64,000 nt of DNA. Origin: Escherichia phage T4_ev151. This document shows, piece after piece, positions 5,707 to 57,030 of the stretch. The notes beneath the pieces are model-generated. The model was not told where the DNA came from. It did no database searches and saw nothing but the letters and a program-made list of their open reading frames with translations. Every line of letters begins with the position of its first letter. The first letter of the stretch is position 1. A program made the translations under genes and the position numbers. The stretch is taken from the sequence record LR597660. The stretch is one strand, 5' to 3'.

Positions 5707-6387
5707 TTATTTTAATGTTACGAAAGAAGAATTGCGTGTTTCACGAATTAAAACTGATCCGTCACGGTTAATGTAATAAATTAAGCTAAATAAAGTTTGG
5801 TGTGCTGACGCGTGTTCAAAACTAGTTGGGTGAGATTTCCAATCCGGAGTTTCAGCTATCCATTGATAAATCCACCAAGGAACGGTGCAGAATCCTGGAT
5901 TTTTTCCAATCAACTGAAGATTCGGGCTAAAGTTTTCCGGAAGAGTAAATACAGACGGCTTTTCAGATTCAATAATCTCAGCTACAGCCTGTTCAAATTT
6001 TTCTTCAACAAAAGGAGTATCTTCAATCAAAACATCGGCATTTTCGGGAATTTTATCCGTTTCTACTACTTCAATTTTAATGTCAGATTTAACCGGAGAA
6101 TCAATCAGAAGTGCTGCTTCTGGATTGACTTCTTCATCGTCATATTTTAATCCCTCTGCAGCATCAGCAGCATCAATTAAGTCTTTAATAGATAACCCAT
6201 CAGTCTCTGGCATAGGTTCACTAGCGAGCTTCTGGAGGGCTTCTTCAATATCAACAACGATATTATCAAAAGATTTATTCTTTTTGACCTTTATACCAAA
6301 CTGTTCAGCATATTCAGCTAATTTAGCTTTAGCTTCTTTGTTATCATCAAGAGCCTTCAGCTCTGCAATATAATCTTTATCTATCAT
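5707..6387 (-). CDS. inh: inhibitor of prohead protease (Inh)
   Basis: 226 aa acidic protein between hoc and segD, as in T4; ATG start verified. Confidence 0.75.
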   Translation of the reverse strand: MIDKDYIAELKALDDNKEAKAKLAEYAEQFGIKVKKNKSFDNIVVDIEEALQKLASEPMPETDGLSIKDLIDAADAAEGLKYDDEEVNPEAALLIDSPVKSDIKIEVVETDKIPENADVLIEDTPFVEEKFEQAVAEIIESEKPSVFTLPENFSPNLQLIGKNPGFCTVPWWIYQWIAETPDWKSHPTSFEHASAHQTLFSLIYYINRDGSVLIRETRNSSFVTLK

Positions 6388-6400
6388 AATATTTCCTCAG

Positions 6401-6408
6401 TATAAATA
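6401..6408 (+). promoter_or_regulatory. late-promoter-like TATAAATA upstream of segD
   Basis: Exact TATAAATA 29 nt upstream of the segD ATG. Confidence 0.45.
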
Positions 6409-6436
6409 TAGATATATTTATTACTCGGAAAATAGT

Positions 6437-7054
6437 ATGTACCACTTTGTATATGAAACAACAAATCTAATAAACGGTAAAAAGTATATAGGAAAACACT
6501 CTACTGATGACTTGAATGATGGTTACCTTGGTTCCGGTAAGGCAATTCAGCAGGCTATAAAGAAATATGGTGAAAACAATTTCTCTAGAACAATATTAAA
6601 AGAGTTTAAAACTTCTGAAGAAGCGTACATGTATGAAGAAGAAATTATAACTCCTGAAATAATAAAAAGCAAAAATTATTATAATATGAAACCTGGTGGA
6701 ATTGGTGGAATTGTTATGACTACAGAGGTTATAGCAAAGATGAAAGAATCTTCCGCTAAGAGATTTGAAAACTCACCGGGCACGGTATTAGGTACAACTT
6801 GTTACACCAATGGAACTAAAAATATTTTTATTAAACCTGGAGAACTTGTTCCAGAAGGATTTGTAAAAGGAATGGTTCATCCTAATAGAAAGTCCAGAAA
6901 AGGATGTAAAGTCAAACCGACTACCACAGGAACTTTTTGGGTCAATAACGGTGCAATAAATAAATTAATACAACCAGACGGTATTATTCCCGACGGATTT
7001 ATTAAAGGTCGTCTCATGAAAAGAGATTCTAAAGGCAAATTTAGTAAGGCATAA
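6437..7054 (+). CDS. segD: free-standing GIY-YIG homing endonuclease (Seg family)
   Basis: 205 aa; N-terminal ...VYETTNLINGKKYIGKHS... GIY-YIG-type motif; C-terminal duplicated I(P)xGF(V/I)KG DNA-binding-like repeats; sits between inh and uvsW as T4 segD. Confidence 0.75.
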   Translation: MYHFVYETTNLINGKKYIGKHSTDDLNDGYLGSGKAIQQAIKKYGENNFSRTILKEFKTSEEAYMYEEEIITPEIIKSKNYYNMKPGGIGGIVMTTEVIAKMKESSAKRFENSPGTVLGTTCYTNGTKNIFIKPGELVPEGFVKGMVHPNRKSRKGCKVKPTTTGTFWVNNGAINKLIQPDGIIPDGFIKGRLMKRDSKGKFSKA

Positions 7055-45140: not shown

Positions 45141-48100
45141 ATGGCCGAGATTAAAAGAAAGTTCAGAGCAGAAGATGGTCTGGACGCAGGTGGCGATAAA
45201 ATAATCAACGTAGCTTTAGCTGATCGTACCGTAGGAACTGACGGTGTTAACGTTGATTACTTAATTCAAGAAAACACAGTTCAGCAATATGACCCAACTC
45301 GTGGATATTTAAAAGATTTTGTAATCATTTATGATAACCGCTTTTGGGCTGCTATAAATGATATTCCAAAACCGGCAGGAGCTTTTAATAGCGGACGCTG
45401 GAGAGCATTACGTACCGACGCAAACTGGATCACAGTTTCATCCGGTTCGTATCAATTAAAATCTGGCGAAGCAATTTCGGTTAATACTGCAGCTGGAAAT
45501 GACATCACATTTACTTTACCATCTACTCCAATTGATGGTGATACTATCGTTCTCCAAGATATTGGAGGAAAACCTGGAGTTAACCAAGTTTTAATTGTAG
45601 CTCCAGTGCAAAGTATTGTAAACTTTAGAGGTGAACAGGTACGTTCAGTACTAATGACTCATCCAAAGTCACAGCTAGTTTTAATTTTTAGTAATCGTCT
45701 GTGGCAAATGTATGTTGCTGATTATAGTAGAGAAGCTGTAATTGTAACACCAGCAAGTCTCTATCAGGCGCAATCTAATGATTTTATCGTACGTAGATTT
45801 ACTTCTGCTGCACCAATTAATATTAAACTTCCAAGATTTGCTAATCATGGCGATATTATTAATTTCGTCGATTTGGATAAATTAAATCCACTTTATCATA
45901 CAATTGTTACTACATACGATGAAACGACTTCAGTACAAGAAGTTGGAACTCATTCCATTGAAGGCCGTACATCGATTGACGGTTTCTTGATGTTTGATGA
46001 TAATGAGAAATTGTGGAGATTGTTTGACGGGGATAGTAAAGCACGTTTACGCATTATAACGACTAATTCTAATATTCGTCCAAACGAAGAAGTTATGGTA
46101 TTTGGTGCGAATAACGGAACAACTCAGACAATTGAACTTCAGCTTCCGACTGATATTTCTGTTGGTGATACTGTTAAAATTTCCATGAATTACATGAGAA
46201 AAGGACAAACAGTTAAAATCAAAGCTGCCGGTGAAGATAAAATTGCTTCTTCAGTTCAATTGCTGCAATTCCCAAAACGTTCAGAGTATCCGCCTGAAAC
46301 TAAATGGGTTACAGTCCAAGAATTAGTTTTTAATGGTGAAACTAATTATGTTCCAGTTTTACAGCTTGCTTATATAGAAGATTCTGATGGAAAATACTGG
46401 GTTGTACAACAAAACGTTCCAACTGTAGAAAGAGTTGATTCTTTAAATGATTCTACTAGAGCAAGATTAGGCGTAATTGCTTTAGCTACACAAGCTCAAG
46501 CTAATGTCGATTTAGAAAATTCTCCACAAAAAGAATTAGCAATTACTCCAGAAACGTTAGCTAATCGTACTGCTACTGAAACTCGCAGAGGTATTGCAAG
46601 AATAGCAACTACTGCTCAAGTGAATCAGAACACCACATTCTCTTTTGCAGATGACCTTATCATTACTCCTAAAAAGCTGAATGAAAGAACTGCTACAGAA
46701 ACTCGCAGAGGTGTCGCAGAAATTGCTACGCAGCAGGAAACTAATACAGGTACTGATGATACTACAATCATTACTCCTAAAAAGCTTCAAGCTCGTCAAG
46801 GTTCTGAGTCATTATCTGGTATTGTAACTTTTGTATCTACTGCAGGTGCTACTCCAGCTTCTAGCCGTGAATTAAATGGTACGAATGTTTATAATAAAAA
46901 CACTAATAATTTAGTTGTTTCACCTAAAGCTTTGGATCAGTATAAAGCTACTCCAACACAGCAAGGTGCAGTAATTTTAGCAGTTGAAAGTGAAGTAATT
47001 GCTGGACAAAGTCAAGAAGGATGGGCAAATGCGGTTGTAACACCAGAAACATTACATAAAAAGACATCAACTGATGACAGAATTGGTTTAATTGAAATTG
47101 CTACGCAAAGTGAAGTTAATACAGGAACTGATTATACTCGTGCAGTTACTCCTAAAACTTTAAATGACCGTAAAGCAACCGAAAGTTTAAGTGGTATAGC
47201 TGAAATTGCTACACAAGTTGAATTCGACGCAGGCGTCGACGATACTCGTATCTCTACACCATTAAAAATTAAAACCAGATTTAATAGTACTGATCGTACT
47301 TCTGTTGTTGCTTTATCTGGATTAGTTGAATCAGGAACTCTCTGGGACCATTATACCCTTGATATTCTTGAAGCAAATGAGACACAGCGTGGTACACTTC
47401 GTGTGGCTACACAAGTTGAAGCTGCTGCAGGAACATTAGATAATGTTTTAATAACTCCTAAAAAGCTTTTAGGTACTAAATCTACTGAAGCACAGGAAGG
47501 TGTTATTAAAGTTGCAACTCAGTCTGAAACTGTGACTGGAACGTCAGCAAATACTGCTGTATCTCCAAAAAATTTAAAATGGATTGTGCAGAGTGAACCT
47601 ACTTGGGCAGCTACTACTTCGATAAGAGGTTTTGTTAAAACTTCATCTGGTTCAATTACATTCGTTGGTAATGATACAGCTGGTTCCACGCAGGACTTAG
47701 AACTATACGAGAAAAATAGCTATGCAGTATCACCATATGAATTAAACCGTGTATTAGCAAATTATTTACCATTAAAAGCAAAAGCTGCTGATACAAATTT
47801 ATTGGATGGTCTAGATTCATCTCAGTTCATTCGTAGGGATATTGCACAGACGGTTAATGGTTCACTAACCTTAACCCAACAAACGAATCTGAGTGCCCCT
47901 CTTGTATCATCTAGTACTGCTACGTTTGGTGGTTCAGTTTCGGCAAATAGTACATTAACTATTTCTAATACTGGAACAGCAACTCGATTGATTTTTGAGA
48001 AAGGACCTCAAACTGGAACAAACCCGGCTCAAACGATGACTGTCAGAGTATGGGGAAATCAATATAGTGGGGAATCAGACACAACACGTTCTACCGTATT

Positions 48101-49010
48101 TGAAGTTAGCGATGAAACATCTAGTCATTTTTATTCTCAGCGCAATAAAGCTGGAAATATAACATTTAATATCAACGGTACAGTAACTCCGATAAATGTT
48201 AATGCTTCAGGAACATTGAATGCAAATGGTGTAGCAACATTTGGTAATTCAGTTACTGCTAATGGCGAATTTATCGGCAAGTCTGCAAATGCTTTCAGAG
48301 CAATAAACGGTGATTATGGATTCTTTATCAGGAATGATGGCGGCAGCACATATTTTATGCTCACTGCATCGGGTGATCAGAGTGGCGGATTTAATGGATT
48401 ACGTCCATTAGCTATTAATAATGCATCTGGTCAAGTAACGATTGGTGAAAGCTTAATCATCGCCAAAGGTGCTACTATAAATTCAGGTGGTTTGACTGTT
48501 AACTCGAGAATTCGTTCTCAGGGTACTAAAACCTCTGATTTATATACCCGTGCGCCAACATCTGATACAGTAGGATTCTGGTCAATCGATATTAATGATT
48601 CAGCCACTTATAACCAGTTCCCGGGTTATTTTAAAATGGTTGAAAAAACTAATGAAGTGACTGGACTTCCATACTTAGAACGTGGTGAAGAAGTTAAATC
48701 TCCTGGTACATTGACTCAGTTTGGTAACACACTTGATTCACTTTACCAAGATTGGATTACTTATCCAACGACCCCAGAAGCACGTACCACTCGCTGGACA
48801 CGTACATGGCAGAAAACCAAAAACTCTTGGTCAAGTTTTGTTCAGGTATTTGACGGAGGTAACCCTCCTCAACCTTCAGATATAGGAGCGATCCCATCTG
48901 ATAATGGAATAATAGGTAATCTTACTATTCGCGATTTCTTGCGAATTGGTAATGTTCGCATTATTCCTGACCCAGTGAATAAAACTGTTAAATTTGAGTG
49001 GATTGAATAA
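45141..49010 (+). CDS. 34: long tail fibre proximal subunit gp34
   Basis: 1289 aa (T4 gp34 length); repeated ...ATETRRG(I/V)A(R/E)IAT... fibre motifs. Confidence 0.92.
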   Translation: MAEIKRKFRAEDGLDAGGDKIINVALADRTVGTDGVNVDYLIQENTVQQYDPTRGYLKDFVIIYDNRFWAAINDIPKPAGAFNSGRWRALRTDANWITVSSGSYQLKSGEAISVNTAAGNDITFTLPSTPIDGDTIVLQDIGGKPGVNQVLIVAPVQSIVNFRGEQVRSVLMTHPKSQLVLIFSNRLWQMYVADYSREAVIVTPASLYQAQSNDFIVRRFTSAAPINIKLPRFANHGDIINFVDLDKLNPLYHTIVTTYDETTSVQEVGTHSIEGRTSIDGFLMFDDNEKLWRLFDGDSKARLRIITTNSNIRPNEEVMVFGANNGTTQTIELQLPTDISVGDTVKISMNYMRKGQTVKIKAAGEDKIASSVQLLQFPKRSEYPPETKWVTVQELVFNGETNYVPVLQLAYIEDSDGKYWVVQQNVPTVERVDSLNDSTRARLGVIALATQAQANVDLENSPQKELAITPETLANRTATETRRGIARIATTAQVNQNTTFSFADDLIITPKKLNERTATETRRGVAEIATQQETNTGTDDTTIITPKKLQARQGSESLSGIVTFVSTAGATPASSRELNGTNVYNKNTNNLVVSPKALDQYKATPTQQGAVILAVESEVIAGQSQEGWANAVVTPETLHKKTSTDDRIGLIEIATQSEVNTGTDYTRAVTPKTLNDRKATESLSGIAEIATQVEFDAGVDDTRISTPLKIKTRFNSTDRTSVVALSGLVESGTLWDHYTLDILEANETQRGTLRVATQVEAAAGTLDNVLITPKKLLGTKSTEAQEGVIKVATQSETVTGTSANTAVSPKNLKWIVQSEPTWAATTSIRGFVKTSSGSITFVGNDTAGSTQDLELYEKNSYAVSPYELNRVLANYLPLKAKAADTNLLDGLDSSQFIRRDIAQTVNGSLTLTQQTNLSAPLVSSSTATFGGSVSANSTLTISNTGTATRLIFEKGPQTGTNPAQTMTVRVWGNQYSGESDTTRSTVFEVSDETSSHFYSQRNKAGNITFNINGTVTPINVNASGTLNANGVATFGNSVTANGEFIGKSANAFRAINGDYGFFIRNDGGSTYFMLTASGDQSGGFNGLRPLAINNASGQVTIGESLIIAKGATINSGGLTVNSRIRSQGTKTSDLYTRAPTSDTVGFWSIDINDSATYNQFPGYFKMVEKTNEVTGLPYLERGEEVKSPGTLTQFGNTLDSLYQDWITYPTTPEARTTRWTRTWQKTKNSWSSFVQVFDGGNPPQPSDIGAIPSDNGIIGNLTIRDFLRIGNVRIIPDPVNKTVKFEWIE

Positions 49011-49018
49011 GAGGTATT

Positions 49019-50134
49019 ATGGAAAAATTTATGGCAGAGTTTGGACAAGGATATGTCCAAACGCCATTTTTATCGGAAAGCAATTCAGTAAGATATAAAA
49101 TAAGCATAGCGGGTTCTTGCCCGCTTTCTACTGCGGGGCCATATGTTAAATTTCAGGATAATCCCGTTGGAAATCAAACATTTAGTGCAGGTCTTCATTT
49201 AAGAGTTTTTGACCCTTCTACGGGAGCATTAGTTGATAGCAAGTCATATGCTTTTTCTGCTTCAAACAATACAACATCTGCCGCTTTTGTCAGTTTCATG
49301 AATTCTTTGTCAAACAATAGACTTGTTGCTATATTAACTAGCGGAAAGGTTAATTTTCCTCCTGAAGTGGTATCTTGGTTAAGAACCGCCGGAACGTCTG
49401 CTTTTCCATCTGACTCTATATTGTCAAGATTTGATGTATCATATGCTGCTTTTTATACTTCTTCTAAAAGAGCTATTGCATTAGAGCATGTTAAATTAAG
49501 TAATAGAAAAAGCACAGATGATTATCAAACTATTTTAGATGTTGTATTTGACAGTTTAGAAGACGTTGGAGCTACCGGGTTTCCAAGAAGAACATATGAA
49601 AGCGTTGAGCAGTTTATGTCAGCGGTTGGTGGAACTAATAACGAAATTGCACGTCTACCAACTTCATCCGCGATAAGTAAACTTTCTGACTACAATTTAA
49701 TTCCTGGCGATGTTCTTTATCTTAAAGCACAACTATATGCTGATGCCGATTTACTTGCTCTTGGAACTACGAATATATCCATTAGATTTTATAATGAATC
49801 GGATGGATATATTTCTTCAACACATGCTGAGTTTACTGGTCAAGCTGGGTCATGGGAATTAAAGGAAGACTATGTAGTTGTTCCTGAAAATGCGGTAGGA
49901 TTTACGATATATGCACAAAGAACTGCCCAAGCAGGTCAAGGAGGCATGAGAAATTTAAGTTTTTCTGAAGTATCAAGAAATGGCGGCATTTCAAAACCTG
50001 CTGAATTCGGCGTCAATGGTATTCGTGTTAATTATATCTGTGAATCTGCTTCACCTCCGGATATAATGGTACTTCCTACACAAGCATCGTCTAAAACTGG
50101 TAAAGTGTTTGGGCAAGAATTTAGAGAAGTTTAA
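49019..50134 (+). CDS. 35: long tail fibre hinge connector gp35
   Basis: 371 aa; immediately downstream of gene 34. Confidence 0.85.
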   Translation: MEKFMAEFGQGYVQTPFLSESNSVRYKISIAGSCPLSTAGPYVKFQDNPVGNQTFSAGLHLRVFDPSTGALVDSKSYAFSASNNTTSAAFVSFMNSLSNNRLVAILTSGKVNFPPEVVSWLRTAGTSAFPSDSILSRFDVSYAAFYTSSKRAIALEHVKLSNRKSTDDYQTILDVVFDSLEDVGATGFPRRTYESVEQFMSAVGGTNNEIARLPTSSAISKLSDYNLIPGDVLYLKAQLYADADLLALGTTNISIRFYNESDGYISSTHAEFTGQAGSWELKEDYVVVPENAVGFTIYAQRTAQAGQGGMRNLSFSEVSRNGGISKPAEFGVNGIRVNYICESASPPDIMVLPTQASSKTGKVFGQEFREV

Positions 50135-50139
50135 ATTGA

Positions 50140-50166
50140 GGGAGCCTTCGGGTTCCCTTTTTCTTT
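50140..50166 (+). terminator. stem-loop terminator after gene 35
   Basis: GGGAGCC-TTCG-GGTTCCC (one G-U pair) followed by TTTTTCTTT. Confidence 0.65.
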
Positions 50167-50173
50167 ATAAATA
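50166..50173 (+). promoter_or_regulatory. late promoter TATAAATA for genes 36-37-38-t
   Basis: Exact TATAAATA 24 nt upstream of the gene 36 ATG. Confidence 0.6.
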
Positions 50174-50196: not shown

Positions 50197-50853
50197 ATGG
50201 CTGATTTAAAAGTAGGTTCAACAACCGGAGGCTCTGTCATTTGGCATCAAGGAAATTTTCCATTGAATCCAGCCGGTGACGATGTACTCTATAAATCATT
50301 TAAAATATATTCAGAATATAATAAACCACAAGCTGCTGATAACGATTTCGTTTCTAAAGCTAATGGCGGTACTTATTTAAATAAAGTAATTTTTAATAAA
50401 GGAATGACTGTTCCTGGCGCAGGGTCAGGTGATAATGGTATTTTTGCTGGTCCTGGTGATAGTGCCACGTATGATACTACAAATATGGATATTGTTTCGT
50501 GGTATGGTATTGGTTTTAAATCATCACAAGGAACAGCAGGTAGAACTGTAGTAATTAACACACGAAATGGAGATATTAGCTCAAAGGGCGTAATTGAAGC
50601 ATCACAAATCCGTGTAACTTCGTTATCACCAGTAAATAATTATGACCTTACGCGGAAAGATTATGTTGATGGAGCAATAAATATTGTTACAGCAAACGCA
50701 AACTCTAGGGTATTACGCTCTGGAGACACTATGACAGGAAATTTAACTGCGCCAAACCTTTTTTCACAGAATCCTGCATCTCAACCCTCGCATGTTCCAC
50801 GATTTGACCAAATTGTTATTAAGGATTCTGTTCAAGATTTCGGCTATTATTAA
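50197..50853 (+). CDS. 36: long tail fibre distal connector gp36
   Basis: 218 aa; AAGGGG SD. Confidence 0.85.
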   Translation: MADLKVGSTTGGSVIWHQGNFPLNPAGDDVLYKSFKIYSEYNKPQAADNDFVSKANGGTYLNKVIFNKGMTVPGAGSGDNGIFAGPGDSATYDTTNMDIVSWYGIGFKSSQGTAGRTVVINTRNGDISSKGVIEASQIRVTSLSPVNNYDLTRKDYVDGAINIVTANANSRVLRSGDTMTGNLTAPNLFSQNPASQPSHVPRFDQIVIKDSVQDFGYY

Positions 50854-50861
50854 GAGGACTT

Positions 50862-53800
50862 ATGGCTACTTTAAAACAAATACAATTTAAAAGAAGCAAA
50901 ACTGCAGGAGCACGTCCTGCCGCTTCAGTATTAGCCGAAGGTGAATTGGCTATAAACTTAAAAGACCGTGTACTTTTTACTAAAGATGACCAAGGAAATA
51001 TTATTGATCTGGGTTTTGCTAAAGGCGGTAGTATTGACGGGAATGTTATTCATACAGGCAATTATAACCAAACTGGCGATTATATTTTAAATGGTGTCTT
51101 CACTCAGACTGGTAATTTTAATTTAACCGGTATTGCTCGAGTAACTCGCGATATTATTGCCGCTGGGCAGATTATGACTGAAGGCGGAGAACTTATTACA
51201 AAAAGTTCAGGTACAGCGCATGTTCGTTTTTTCGATAACAATAGTCGCGAACGCGGAATCATTTATGCCCCGGCTAATGATGGTTTAACTACACAAGTAC
51301 TTAATATCAGGGTTCAAGACTACGCCGCTGGTAGCGAAAGCACTTATGCATTTTCAGGCAGTGGACTATTTACTTCACCTGAAGTATCAGCATGGAAATC
51401 TATTTCGTCTCCACAAATTCTAACCAACAAAGTCATTACTAATAATAAATCTACGGGTGATTATGACATCTATTCGATGGCAGACAATGTTCCATTGTCT
51501 GAAAGCACTACTGCTATTAATCATCTTCGTGTCATGCGTAATGCCGTTGGTTCTGGTATTTTCCATGAAGTTAAAGATAATGATGGAATAACTTGGTATG
51601 CAGGTGATGGACTTGACACCTATCTTTGGTCATTTACTTGGAGCGGCGGAATTAAATCAAGTCACTCAATTTCTATTGGTTTAACACCTGGTAATAAAGA
51701 TTATTCAATATTAGGACCATCTAGTATTGCTTTAGGAGATAATGATACTGGATTTAAATGGCATCAAGATGGATATTATTTTAGCGTTAATAATGGAACA
51801 AAAACGTTTTTATTTAGTCCTAGCGAAACAACTAGCCTAAGAAAATTTGTAGCTGGATATTCTACTAACGGAACCGATTTAACTACTCCTCCAACTGAAA
51901 ACTATGCTCTCGCTACTGTCGTGACATATCACGATAATAACGCGTTTGGAGATGGTCAGACTCTTTTAGGATATTATCAAGGCGGTAACTATCATCATTA
52001 TTTCCGCGGCAAGGGTACCACAAACATTAATACTCACGGCGGTTTGTTAGTTACTCCTGGTAATATTGACGTTATTGGTGGTTCTGTTAATATCGATGGT
52101 AGAAATAATGCTTCTACACTGATGTTTAGAGGTAACACAACTGGTAGCAGTTCAGTTGATAATATGACAATTTCCGTGTGGGGTAATACCTTTACTAATC
52201 CTAGCGAAGGCACCCGTAAAAATGTCATGGAAATTTCTGACGCAACTAGTTGGATGAGCTATATTCAACGAACAACTGCAGGTAAAGTCGAATCGGTTAT
52301 AAATGGCACCCAGATTGTTAATGAAAACTTGACAGTAGTAAAAAATGCTACATTTGACGGTACAATCAGCGCAGCCGGTGAAATCGCGACAAATGCTGTA
52401 AATGGTCTTCGCATTTGGAACGCAGATTATGGAGCTATTTTTAGACGTTCAGAAGGAAGTCTTCATATTATTCCAACTGCTTACGGTGAAGGTAAATATG
52501 GCGATATCGGTCCACTTCGCCCGTTTAGTATGGCTTTAGATACTGGTAAAGTTACTATTCCAGATTTACAATCAAGTTACAATACGTTCGCTGCTAACGG
52601 TTATATTAAATTTGTTGGTCATGGAGCGGGTGCCGGCGGTTATGACATTCAATATGTTCAAGCGGCTCCTATTTTCCAGGAAATCGATGATGATGCTGTA
52701 AGCAAATATTATCCTATTGTTAAACAGAAGTTTCTAAACGGTAAATCCGTTTGGTCTTTAGGTACTGAAATTAATTCGGGTACATTGGTTATTCATCATC
52801 TGAAAGAAGATGGATCACAAGGCCATACGTCTCGTTTTAATCAAGACGGTACTGTTAACTTCCCTGATAACGTTCAGGTCGGCGGCGGTGAAGCTACTAT
52901 TGCTCGTAATGGTAATATTTTCTCGGATATTTGGAAATCGTTCACTTCAGCAGGAGACACTACAAATATTCGTGACGCAATAGCTACCCGTGTTGCCAAA
53001 GAAGGTGATACGATGACCGGCAAGTTGATTATTAGAAGAGATTCTGACGCTATTAACTTAGCTGCGCCTTCAGCAACTGATGCAAGTTACCTTCTTTCTA
53101 CTGGCGGTGGAGAAAATCAATGGTATATTGGTAAAGGCGGCGCTGATAATACTGTATCATTCTACAACTATAAAACCAACGGGGCTGTGCAAATTAACTC
53201 TATTGGTGAAATCGCGCTGATTCCACAAGGTGCTGCAACATTTAACTTTAACCGCGATCGTCTCCATATAAATGGGACTCAATGGACTGCACATCAAGCT
53301 GGTGACTGGGGTAACCAATGGCGTCAAGAAGCTCCTATATTTGTGGATTTTGGTAGTGTCGGTAATGATAGTTATTATCCTATTATTAAAGGAAAATCTG
53401 TTATTACGAATGAAGGATACGTATCTGGTGTTGATTTCGGTATGCGACGCATTCCTAATAACTGGGCTCAGGCTATTATCCGTGTTGGTAACCAGGAAAA
53501 TGCTAGCGATCCGCAAGCTATCTTCGAATTCCACTATAATGGAAACATGTACGTTCCTGACATGGTTAAAGCTGGAGTAAGAATATCAGCTGGTGGAGGT
53601 GACCCTGTATGGACAGGCGCATGTGTTGTTATTGGTGATAATGATACCGGATTAGTTCATGGTGGTGACGGCCGAATCAATATGGTTGCAAATGGAATGC
53701 ATATTGCTTCATGGTCGTCCGCTTACCATCTCCATGAAGGTCTTTGGGATACCACTGGTGCTTTGTGGACTGAACAAGGAAGAGCTATTATTTCTTTTGG

Positions 53801-54194
53801 TCATTTAGTCCAACAGAGCGATGCCTATTCCACATTTGTTCGAGATGTTTATGTCCGTTCTGATATTCGTGTTAAAAAAGACCTTGTTAAATTTGAAAAT
53901 GCTTCTGAGAAGCTTTCCAAAATTAACGGTTACACTTATATGCAGAAGCGAGGCCTAGATGAAGAAGGCAATCAGAAATGGGAACCTAACGCCGGTTTAA
54001 TTGCTCAAGAAGTTCAAGCTATTTTACCAGAATTAGTTGAAGGTGACCCTGATGGCGAAGCTTTACTTCGTTTGAACTATAACGGTATAATTGGTTTAAA
54101 TACAGCTGCAATCAATGAGCATACTGCAGAAATTGCAGAACTTAAATCAGAAATCGAAGAACTTAAAGCATTAGTTAAATCATTGTTAAAATAA
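50862..54194 (+). CDS. 37: long tail fibre distal subunit gp37 with C-terminal intramolecular-chaperone-like domain
   Basis: 1110 aa versus 1026 aa recalled for T4; the C-terminal ~111 aa begin SDIRVKKDL and end in a coiled coil ([22 protein letters not shown]). Confidence 0.88.
53859..54191 (+). other. putative auto-cleaved intramolecular chaperone domain of gp37
   Basis: S-D-x-R-x-K motif at residue 1000 (SDIRVKK), resembling the cleavage/catalytic motif of phage fibre and endosialidase chaperone domains; assignment from memory. Confidence 0.55.
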
Positions 54195-54198
54195 TAAG

Positions 54199-54214
54199 AG
54201 GGGCTTCGGCCCCT
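54199..54214. terminator. stem-loop between genes 37 and 38
   Basis: AGGGGC-TTCG-GCCCCT hairpin immediately after the gene 37 stop and just upstream of the GGAGG SD of gene 38. Confidence 0.45.
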
Positions 54215-54225
54215 TGGAGGTTTAT

Positions 54226-55002
54226 ATGGCAGTAGCAGGACCGTGGATAGGAACTTCTGCATTGGCACAGACTGGAGACCATTGGATGGCAGGAGCAGCC
54301 GCAAGATTAAGAATGGGCGTTCCGTTTTGGATGAGTAATATGATAGGTCGATCTGTTGAAGTAATTCACACGCTTGGAGCAGACCATAACTTCAATGGTC
54401 AATGGTTCCGAGATAGATGTTTTGAGGCAGGTAGTGCACCTATAGTGTTTAATATCACTGGAGATTTAGTATCATATTCTAAAGATGTTCCTTTATTCTT
54501 CATGTATGGAGATACACCGAATGAATATGTTCAGTTGAATATACACGGCGTAACGATGTATGGACGTGGCGGTAATGGCGGTAGCAATAGTCCTGGCTCA
54601 GCTGGAGGTCATTGTATTCAAAACGATATTGGTGGGAGACTAAGAATCAATAATGGCGGAGCTATTGCAGGCGGCGGTGGCGGCGGTGGCGGCGGATATT
54701 ATTCTCCTTTTTCACAAATGAGATTGACCTTTGGTGGTGGTGGCGGTCGTCCTTTTGGTGCGCCAGGCGGATCTATTGATATGCAATCAGGCGCAACTGC
54801 TGGTACTATTTCTGCGCCTGGCGCAGGGTCTGTGAACGGTATCTATAATGGCGGGAATGGTGGTGAAGTTGGCTCCGCAGGAGGTAGATGCAATATTCGC
54901 GGTCAAGGATCTGAATATAATGGCGGCGATGCTGGTTATGCTGTTATAGGGTCTGCTCCAACGTGGATAAATGTTGGAGCAATATATGGTCCAAGAGTAT
55001 AA
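54226..55002 (+). CDS. 38: T2/T6-type tail-fibre adhesin gp38 with glycine-rich motifs
   Basis: Track starts at TTG 54214; ATG at 54226 follows GGAGG; 258 aa with glycine-rich segments ([61 protein letters not shown]) separated by variable segments. Confidence 0.8.
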
Positions 55003-55032: not shown

Positions 55033-55689
55033 ATGGCAGCACCTAGAATATCATTTTCGCCCTCTGATATTCTATTTGGTGTTCTAGATCGCTTGTTCAA
55101 AGATAACGCTACCGGGAAAGTTCTTGCTTCCCGGGTAGCTGTCGTAATTCTTTTATTTATGATGGCGATTGTTTGGTATAGGGGAGATAGTTTCTTTGAG
55201 TACTATAAGCAATCAAAGTATGAAACATACAGTGAAATTATTGAAAAGGAAAGAAATGCACGCTTTGAATCTGTCGCCCTGGAACAACTCCAGATAGTTC
55301 ATATATCATCTGAGGCAGACTTTAGTGCGGTGTATTCTTTCCGCCCTAAAAACTTAAACTATTTTGTTGATATTATAGCATATGAAGGAAAATTACCTTC
55401 AACAATAAGTGAAAAATCACTTGGAGGATATCCTGTTGATAAAACTATGGATGAATATGCAGTTCATTTAAATGGACGTCATTATTATTCCAACTCAAAA
55501 TTTGCTTTTTTACCAACTAAAAAGCCTACTCCCGAAATAAACTACATGTACAGTTGTCCATATTTTAATTTGGATAATATCTATGCTGGAACGATAACCA
55601 TGTACTGGTATAGAAATGATCATATAAGTAATGACCGCCTTGAATCAATATGTGCTCAGGCGGCCAGAATATTAGGAAGGGCTAAATAA
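55033..55689 (+). CDS. t: holin / lysis-inhibition sensor T
   Basis: 218 aa MAAPRISFSPSDILFGVLDRLFKDNATGKVLASRVAVVILLFMMAIVWYR...; single TM segment and large periplasmic domain; matches recalled T4 T. Confidence 0.93.
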   Translation: MAAPRISFSPSDILFGVLDRLFKDNATGKVLASRVAVVILLFMMAIVWYRGDSFFEYYKQSKYETYSEIIEKERNARFESVALEQLQIVHISSEADFSAVYSFRPKNLNYFVDIIAYEGKLPSTISEKSLGGYPVDKTMDEYAVHLNGRHYYSNSKFAFLPTKKPTPEINYMYSCPYFNLDNIYAGTITMYWYRNDHISNDRLESICAQAARILGRAK

Positions 55690-56127: not shown

Positions 56128-56402
56128 TCGAAATAATCTTCAATTTCATAATCAAGAACATAAATCATTATAGTTTTTAATACATCATCAATACTTTTTC
56201 CAGGAGCTGGAATTACGTAAAAATATCCTGCTTTTGAGAGGTCTTTATAAGTTCCAACCAAGAAATCATTATTCTCAAGATGCAGTTCTTCAACTAATTC
56301 ATTAACAATTGAGTGGTATAAATTTGGTAGAAACTTATATAGCTTTTCTAGAATATCAATTTTGATTGTGTATTGAACCACAGACTGAGAATCAATAATC
56401 AT
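56124..56402 (-). CDS. arn: anti-restriction nuclease (Arn) candidate
   Basis: 92 aa acidic protein at the T4 arn position and with the T4 Arn length; assignment by position and size. Confidence 0.65.
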   Translation of the reverse strand: MIIDSQSVVQYTIKIDILEKLYKFLPNLYHSIVNELVEELHLENNDFLVGTYKDLSKAGYFYVIPAPGKSIDDVLKTIMIYVLDYEIEDYFE

Positions 56403-56568
56403 AGACCTTCCCCTTATGTTTCTGTTTGCGATTAGATTCTTTAAACGCTTTCTTCTTATCTTTGTGGACAGAAGCTTTATTAAAATTATGTTTTGCGACT
56501 AAATTGTTCATAGTGCTGAATTACCTCTCTCAAACATTTGCATGTGAATGAAAACTTTTTAATATTCA

Positions 56569-57030
56569 TTAGTAAAGGTCCTCAGAGTAAAGTTCTTTTT
56601 CATTACCACCACGTTCAATACGTACTTGTCCAGCGTAAGTTGCAATAATCATTGCTTCTTCACGTGTCCAATAATTACTATATTGGTCAATAAACCCTTG
56701 GTCATCATCACAAACTTGTTGAGTAACTAATTGAGGTTTAACTACATCTAAAACTTCTGCCATATCTTTAGAATAATGACGAGCACCTGGAATAATAAGA
56801 GTTTGTCCATCTTTTAATTTAAAACGGTTGGCTGCACAGACAATTCGTCGTTGATACTTTTGGTTTTCATCCCAATACGCAGTCTGCCAACAGATTTCAG
56901 GAACTTCTTTCAGAATATCTTCTTCTGCGCATTTATAACCATGCGCTTTAAATTTTTCAACAAGACTTTCTGGAGTTTCACGAGATAAAGGAACATTCAG
57001 CATTTTTAAACGATTAATAAATGGGTTCAT
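56569..57030 (-). CDS. hypothetical protein
   Basis: 153 aa; ATG verified; no recognised motifs; region corresponds to the arn.x/motA.1 block in T4 but with different ORF sizes. Confidence 0.6.

Follow-up and report, generated by a model that had tools for sequence, protein, structure and literature searches.

The distal end of the long tail fibre of Escherichia phage T4_ev151 is very probably a standard T2/T6-type Tequatrovirus tip, with a self-cleaving gp37, gp38 as the cap and Tsx-type loops on gp38. The DNA analysed here is a stretch of 64,000 nt (sequence record LR597660; "the window" refers to this whole stretch). It represents the late region of a Tequatrovirus (T-even phage) with a backbone about 96% identical to many Tequatroviruses, and among the matches listed in an INPHARED search the best were 93-96% identical. 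The part from 53859 to 55002 comprises the 3′ end of gene 37 and gene 38 (Table 1). It has homology to known fibre tips, conserved catalytic and docking residues, the expected gene order and a gp38 specificity domain nearly identical to those of Tsx-dependent phages.

Table 1. Position of the features in the window (position 1 is the first nucleotide of the window)
Feature	Position	Strand	Basis or remark
T4-type late promoter box TATAAATA	45099		exact match; just upstream of g34
g34	45141-49010		ORF, Pfam, synteny
g35	49019-50134		ORF, Pfam, synteny
T4-type late promoter box TATAAATA	50166-50173	+	exact match; 24 nt upstream of g36 ATG
g36	50197-50853	+	ORF, Pfam, synteny
g37 (gp37, 1110 aa)	50862-54194	+	ORF listing, Pfam, synteny
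gp37 mature part, residues 1-999, distal long-tail-fibre subunit	50862-53858	+	ORF; Pfam Gp34_trimer and gp37_trimer
gp37 distal tip, residues 919-999, ending in ...FVRDVYVR	53616-53858	+	aligned to S16 gp37 crystal construct 6F45_A
Putative intramolecular chaperone/autoprotease domain (Peptidase_S74), gp37 residues 1000-1110	53859-54191	+	PF13884, PDB profile matches
Predicted catalytic dyad of gp37, S1000 and K1005	53859-53861 and 53874-53876	+	alignment to solved chaperone domains
Heptad-repeat helix, gp37 residues about 1075-1110	54084-54191	+	heptad register
Tandem stop codons TAA TAA	54192-54197	+	sequence
C(UUCG)G tetraloop hairpin in the 37-38 spacer	54198-54215	+	sequence and fold
Shine-Dalgarno sequence GGAGG of g38	54216-54220	+	sequence
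g38, receptor-recognising adhesin of T2/T6 type, 258 aa	54226-55002	+	Pfam, PHROG, PDB
gp38 N-terminal attachment domain, residues 1-40, PP01/Maryam subtype	54226-54345	+	invariant columns, identity
gp38 specificity domain, T6/Tsx type	54562-54951	+	invariant glycine blocks, identity over residues 113-238
holin t	55033-55689		after g38; ORF, Pfam, synteny
asiA, arn, motA	downstream of t	-	ORF, Pfam, synteny

The C-terminal domain of gp37

An earlier reading of the window, made from the sequence only, had described gp37 as a protein of 1110 aa whose last 111 residues begin with SDIRVKKDL, and had assigned the S-D-x-R-x-K motif therein to auto-cleaving intramolecular chaperone domains. The length is confirmed by the ORF of gene 37. 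Translation of 53859-54194 starts with the named residues and yields exactly 111 residues and a stop, and position 53859 thus corresponds to codon 1000. The motif assignment was borne out by the Pfam and PDB profile searches, which stand in for the HHpred comparison of the gp37 C-terminus that the same reading had proposed. Residues 1000-1059 match PF13884 (Peptidase_S74, "chaperone of endosialidase") over positions 1-57 of the 58 profile positions with 54.6 bits (E 1.3e-14), which exceeds the curated Pfam cut-off of 22 bits. When the PDB was searched with a profile made from the C-termini of gp37 of the window, Maryam, FL23, T6 and T2, matches were obtained to S16 gp37 (6F45_A, 1e-28), the ICA domain of MyRF (7DC3, 2e-9), a tail fibre (8JOV, 2e-8) and the chaperone domain of the GA-1 neck appendage (3GUD, 7e-3), and the S-D-x-R-x-K motif is aligned in all of them.

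In these alignments S1000 of gp37 coincides with the cleavage-site serine, with which the released GA-1 fragment begins and which is position 587 of MyRF, and K1005 coincides with the lysine located five residues further on (K592 of MyRF). S587 and K592 of MyRF form a Ser-Lys catalytic dyad that is equivalent to S911/K916 of endosialidase NF (PMC8326128). The 7DC3 chain has an alanine at the position matching S1000, and we presume that this chain is the cleavage-dead MyRF mutant S587A. By analogy to these proteins, the bond predicted to be cleaved in gp37 is R999|S1000. The motif residues S, D, R and K show no variation among the window, T2, T6, FL23 and Maryam. Gp37 of phage S16 loses its last 113 residues by autocleavage at DLNVS^SDRRIKK, and the docking surface for gp38 is thereby bared (PMC7917993). 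Processing occurs in the homologous gp37 proteins of S16, T2 and T6 (PMC7917993, PMC3157838).

The sequence-only reading had also seen a coiled coil at the end of gp37, and the last 36 residues indeed follow a clean heptad pattern, with I, I, I, I and V at the a positions and N, H, L, L and L at d; 8 of these 10 positions are hydrophobic. This terminal helix is a probable trimerising coiled coil; in the homologous domain of MyRF a C-terminal coiled coil drives trimerisation (PMC8326128). For the 111-residue domain, AlphaFold run on the single sequence gave a poor model (pLDDT 65, pTM 0.37), with a helix of pLDDT about 90 at domain residues 91-110. The proposed identity of the chaperone domain is based on homology to solved structures.

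The same Peptidase_S74 match is present in gp37 of T2 (residues 1243-1300) and of T6 (residues 882-940), while T4 gp37 has no such domain and carries Collar and Phage_fiber repeats instead. The label "T2/T6-type", which had been given to this module by the sequence-only reading, is therefore accurate.

The gp37 tip and the mosaic structure of gp37

The Peptidase_S74 domain occupies the last 111 of the 1110 residues of gp37 and follows a tip (residues 919-999) that aligns to the beta-helix of S16 gp37 (6F45_A) with an E value of 1.9e-43. This tip is 98% identical to that of PP01 and of RB27, and 27% identical to that of T6. By analogy to the model for the docking role of the S16 tip (PMC6851490, PMC7917993), the docking surface for gp38 would be the gp37 tip freed by removal of the chaperone domain. 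As judged from identities per 50-residue block, the entire gp37 is a mosaic composed of segments that resemble RB27, PP01 and Maryam, and T4 gp37 aligns with it only over the N-terminal approximately 650 residues, with 34% identity.

Further upstream, a segment of gp37 (window 51270-52560; residues about 418-567) has homology to the trimerisation region at the C-terminus of gp34, the proximal fibre protein. It matches Pfam Gp34_trimer and PDB entries 4UXE and 5NXF (E about 1e-15), and is a known module common to both half-fibres. An antisense ORF of 125 aa within g37 (53157-53534) was taken as a chance ORF.

Gene 38 and the architecture of gp38

Gene 38 lies directly downstream of the gene 37 region for the predicted cleavable domain. 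Its ORF codes for 262 aa from a TTG at 54214 or for 258 aa from an ATG at 54226. The TTG is located in the stem of a hairpin and has no upstream Shine-Dalgarno sequence, and was rejected as start codon. We assign the start to ATG 54226, since GGAGG precedes it by 5 nt and all annotated homologues use the start that gives 258 aa. This agrees with the 258 aa previously given for the protein encoded next to gene 37.

That gp38 has the architecture of the T2/T6/K3-type adhesins, as had been proposed, is supported by full-length matches to two Pfam families. PF05268 (GP38; Pfam cut-off 25 bits) matches residues 45-258 with 240.7 bits (E 2e-71; profile positions 1-218 of 218), and PF21721 (Gp38_N) matches residues 1-40 with 70.2 bits (E 1.5e-19; profile positions 1-40 of 40). 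Further matches were found to PHROG 2056 ("tail fiber protein; host specificity", 3e-109), to the receptor-binding domain of PP01 gp38 (PDB 9V85, 4.5e-80) and to S16 gp38 (6F45_D, 1.4e-51). An alignment of gp38 with known adhesins had been suggested as a check, and these Pfam and PDB searches are its positive equivalents. With E values of 1.3e-14 for the gp37 domain and 2e-71 for gp38, both far beyond chance, the assignment to these families is unambiguous.

Within the attachment domain, W7, W20 and W35 are invariant in the window, Maryam, FL23, RB27, T6, PP01 and T2. In S16, three tryptophans of gp38 plug symmetric pockets of the gp37 trimer (PMC6851490), and W7, W20 and W35 correspond to these residues.

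By its invariant columns, gp38 has five glycine-rich blocks at residues about 113-119, 149-157, 170-178, 209-216 and 233-242, in which the invariant glycine stretches cover 113-118, 150-155, 170-178, 210-216 and 237-242. The sequence-only reading had counted four such motifs; the standard definition of gp38 comprises five glycine-rich motifs in alternation with four hypervariable segments (Trojet 2011, PMC3157838), and by this definition the number has to be corrected to five. The C-terminal motif P-x-W-x-NVG-x-IYG-x-RV is also present. Glycine accounts for 61 of the 258 residues (24%) and for 36.5% over residues 113-238. From 54500 to 55000 the local GC content is 0.49 and the GC skew +0.30, and the flanks have a GC content of about 0.35-0.40. 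The rise is due to the run of GGN glycine codons in the specificity domain and is no sign of foreign origin.

Prediction of the receptor

In order to predict the receptor, identities of gp38 to related adhesins were determined separately for the attachment domain and the specificity domain (Table 2).

Table 2. Identity of the window gp38 to related gp38 proteins by domain (attachment, residues 1-40; specificity, residues 113-238; RB33 over residues 113-258)
gp38 of phage	Attachment	Specificity	Receptor
FL23	78%	98%	Tsx
RB27	70%	97%	Tsx
T6	52%	94%	Tsx
PP01	92%	50%	OmpC
T2	45%	47%	FadL/OmpF
RB33		55% (over 113-258)	OmpA/LPS
Maryam	100%	94%	

On a tsx deletion strain, FL23 and FL44 are no longer infective (PMC12032242), and T6, RB27 and all other T6-like adhesins tested by Trojet et al. 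use Tsx (PMC3157838). Since the specificity domain is 94-98% identical to those of T6, RB27 and FL23 and only 47-55% identical to the other types, the predicted primary receptor, as judged by sequence, is most likely Tsx. The earlier expectation had been that the receptor differs from that of T4 and depends on the variable segments of gp38; this is in agreement with published data (PMC3157838, PMC12032242, PMC12892980) and can now be sharpened to Tsx. In a receptor-screen preprint from 2026 (bioRxiv 10.64898/2026.04.02.716166) and its supplements, no receptor data for EV151 were found.

The comparison at the level of single residues points in the same direction. Hypervariable segment HVS1 is identical to that of FL23, RB27 and T6, and HVS2 is identical to that of FL23 and RB27, with one difference to T6 (S163P). 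Among the sequences compared, D235 is the only residue of the specificity domain that is not seen in the Tsx-verified phages FL23, RB27 and T6, and it is shared only with Maryam; each of the other variant residues occurs in one or more of the Tsx-verified phages. At the positions that distinguish PST from T6 (Q167, M168 and G208 in T6), the gp38 of the window has the T6 state.

These data bear on a rival view, in which the architecture is unchanged but Tsx is not the primary receptor or not the only one; another porin such as OmpA or OmpF could be used, or LPS be needed in addition, as a consequence of a few substitutions in the specificity domain or of the PP01-type context. Single substitutions in the variable loops can indeed switch the receptor in the gp38 family: Q206L in RB68 changes it from OmpF to OmpW (bioRxiv 10.64898/2026.04.02.716166), and a few gp38 residues that differ between PST and T6 extend recognition to Yersinia and OmpA (PMC3157838). 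The absence of D235 from the three Tsx-verified relatives would also fit a deviating receptor. Nevertheless, we consider this unlikely, given near-identity to three independently tested Tsx users, HVS1 and HVS2 that are unchanged except for S163P relative to T6, the occurrence of all remaining variant residues in Tsx-verified phages, and the use of Tsx by every T6-like adhesin in the tests of Trojet et al.

The gp37 tip and the attachment domain of gp38 are both of the PP01/RB27/Maryam subtype, a match that corresponds to the lock-and-key pairing of Trojet et al. (PMC3157838). Based on the identities of the gp37 tip and the gp38 domains, the locus is a mosaic of a PP01/RB27-type tip and attachment domain with a T6-type specificity domain. 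There is a small chance that this mosaic, with a specificity domain carrying D235 and I248 on a PP01/O157-type gp37 tip and attachment domain, confers a receptor or host range unlike that of T6. A possible outcome would be dual recognition of Tsx and a second porin or LPS, as in PST, and the gp38 allele of the window would then be a natural example of host-range extension by few residues. Recognition of Tsx as primary receptor remains our preferred reading.

The RB33 record (KM607001) used for comparison has gene 38 (5882-6712) annotated as a truncated adhesin of 146 aa, with the remainder in another frame. Two explanations come into question: a frameshift in the deposited sequence close to where the glycine-rich region begins, or gene 38 of RB33 being a true pseudogene.

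Spacer between genes 37 and 38, late promoters and gene order

From the gp37 stop codon to the ATG of g38 there are 31 nt, which include the second stop codon, a CUUCGG hairpin and the Shine-Dalgarno sequence (Table 1). The hairpin is conserved in T2, T4, T6, PP01, RB27, FL23 and Maryam. No U-run follows it on the + strand, and it is thus not a typical terminator. It marks a conserved module boundary, since it is conserved although g38 of T4 is unrelated. A second hairpin of the CUUCGG type is located at 50138-50159, is followed by a T-run and directly precedes the late promoter of g36. Tuerk and co-workers are said to have described such hairpins in T4 intercistronic regions in 1988.

The box TATAAATA upstream of g36 probably drives a late transcript of genes 36, 37 and 38; we assume the promoter function of this box from what is known of T4. 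The order of the genes was derived from ORFs, Pfam matches and synteny with T6, RB27, T2 and T4. The spacer between arn and arn.3 (56402-56569) is only 167 bp long, compared to about 580 bp in RB27, T6, T2 and RB33, in which it carries the small ORFs arn.1 and arn.2. The short spacer suggests an indel in the hyperplastic region that follows asiA. Within the window no Rfam families and no tRNAs were found.

Proposed assembly of the fibre tip

Cleavage of gp37, presence of gp38 in the virion and binding to Tsx are suggested by analogy to close relatives that were studied by experiment; the position of gp38 at the fibre tip is established for T2-type phages and S16 (PMC12892980, PMC6851490). According to this model, gp37 precursors of 1110 residues would trimerise via the coiled coil of the C-terminal chaperone domain, which would serve as template for folding of the upstream triple beta-helix. 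After folding, Ser1000 and Lys1005 would cut between R999 and S1000 and release the 111-residue domain. One gp38 would then cap the bared tip (...DVYVR), with its N-terminal helical bundle docking via W7, W20 and W35. The five glycine-rich motifs would fold into a polyglycine-II sandwich from which the hypervariable loops are presented, and these T6-type loops would bind Tsx, a nucleoside channel in the outer membrane of E. coli.

Annotation and use of the prediction

The gp37-gp38 tip is an ordinary, well-studied textbook module for host recognition and is already known in kind. It is the predominant architecture of the fibre tip in T-even phages (PMC3157838, PMC6851490), and crystal structures, receptor genetics and also predictive models (bioRxiv 10.64898/2026.04.02.716166) are available for it. 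An exact protein look-up identified gp37 as VUF56014.1 and gp38 as VUF56016.1 of Escherichia phage T4_ev151, and both are labelled "hypothetical protein" in GenBank. The latter can be renamed with confidence as "receptor-recognising adhesin gp38", and the label of gp37 can likewise be replaced. The only gains are this better annotation of a deposited genome and the prediction of Tsx as receptor; no new biology is implied. Such a prediction is useful in the design of phage cocktails, as it avoids pairing of phages that have a common receptor and fail together against resistance.

Comparison with known systems

T4 has syntenic genes and the conserved CUUCGG hairpin between 37 and 38, but differs in both proteins. 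T4 gp37 carries its own receptor-binding tip, whereas gp37 of the window ends in a Peptidase_S74 domain. T4 gp38 is an unrelated assembly chaperone of 183 aa, a size and role correctly given in the sequence-only reading, that is released after folding and is not part of the virion (PMC12892980), as opposed to the 258-aa adhesin found here. Comparison of the two gp38 proteins revealed no similarity (best BLASTP E value 1.1 over 15 residues), and they have no Pfam family in common; a T4-type chaperone role for gp38 of the window was rejected on the lack of similarity. That the end of gp37 is retained uncleaved as a degenerate chaperone-like domain, with gp38 acting as assembly factor only, as in T4, is highly improbable in view of the intact and invariant Ser, Lys, D and R of the motif, the processing of the homologous S16, T2 and T6 proteins, this lack of similarity to the T4 chaperone, and an identity of about 70% to PP01 gp38, a proven receptor-binding protein of the fibre tip (PMC12892980).

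The arrangement with a cleavable gp37 and a gp38 cap has its nearest counterparts in T6, RB27, FL23 and FL44, which have the same gene order 36-37-38-t and a C-terminal Peptidase_S74 domain in gp37. Their gp38, like that of the window, is about 258-261 aa long and has five glycine-rich motifs as well as four hypervariable segments. In RB27, too, a T6-type specificity domain is combined with a PP01/RB27-type tip. T6 itself differs in the gp37 tip (27% identity) and in the attachment domain of gp38 (52% identity). Identity to PP01 amounts to 98% in the gp37 tip and chaperone domain and to 99% in the beta-helix domain of gp38, and the fold is the same (9V85). PP01 differs in the specificity domain of gp38 (50% identity) and binds OmpC of O157 through loops D and E (PMC12892980), while the gp38 of the window has T6/Tsx-type loops.

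S16 (6F45) resembles the window in the trimeric beta-helix of gp37, the Peptidase_S74-type end, the three tryptophans by which the monomeric gp38 docks and the polyglycine-II sandwich (PMC6851490, PMC7917993). Its sequence is diverged, the context of the cleavage site is DLNVS^SD instead of DVYVR^SD, and it recognises Salmonella OmpC. More distant relatives are endoNF, GA-1 gp12, T5 pb1 and the ICA domain of MyRF, with the same S-D-x-R-x-K motif, Ser-Lys dyad and terminal coiled coil (PMC8326128). In these proteins the domain is C-terminal and follows a triple beta-helix, as in gp37 of the window. The passenger is different, being the shaft of a T-even long tail fibre in the window, and a tailspike, a neck appendage or a transcription factor among the Peptidase_S74 relatives. 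Unlike in endosialidase-type systems, the end of gp37 that would be bared by the predicted cleavage would be capped by a separate adhesin.
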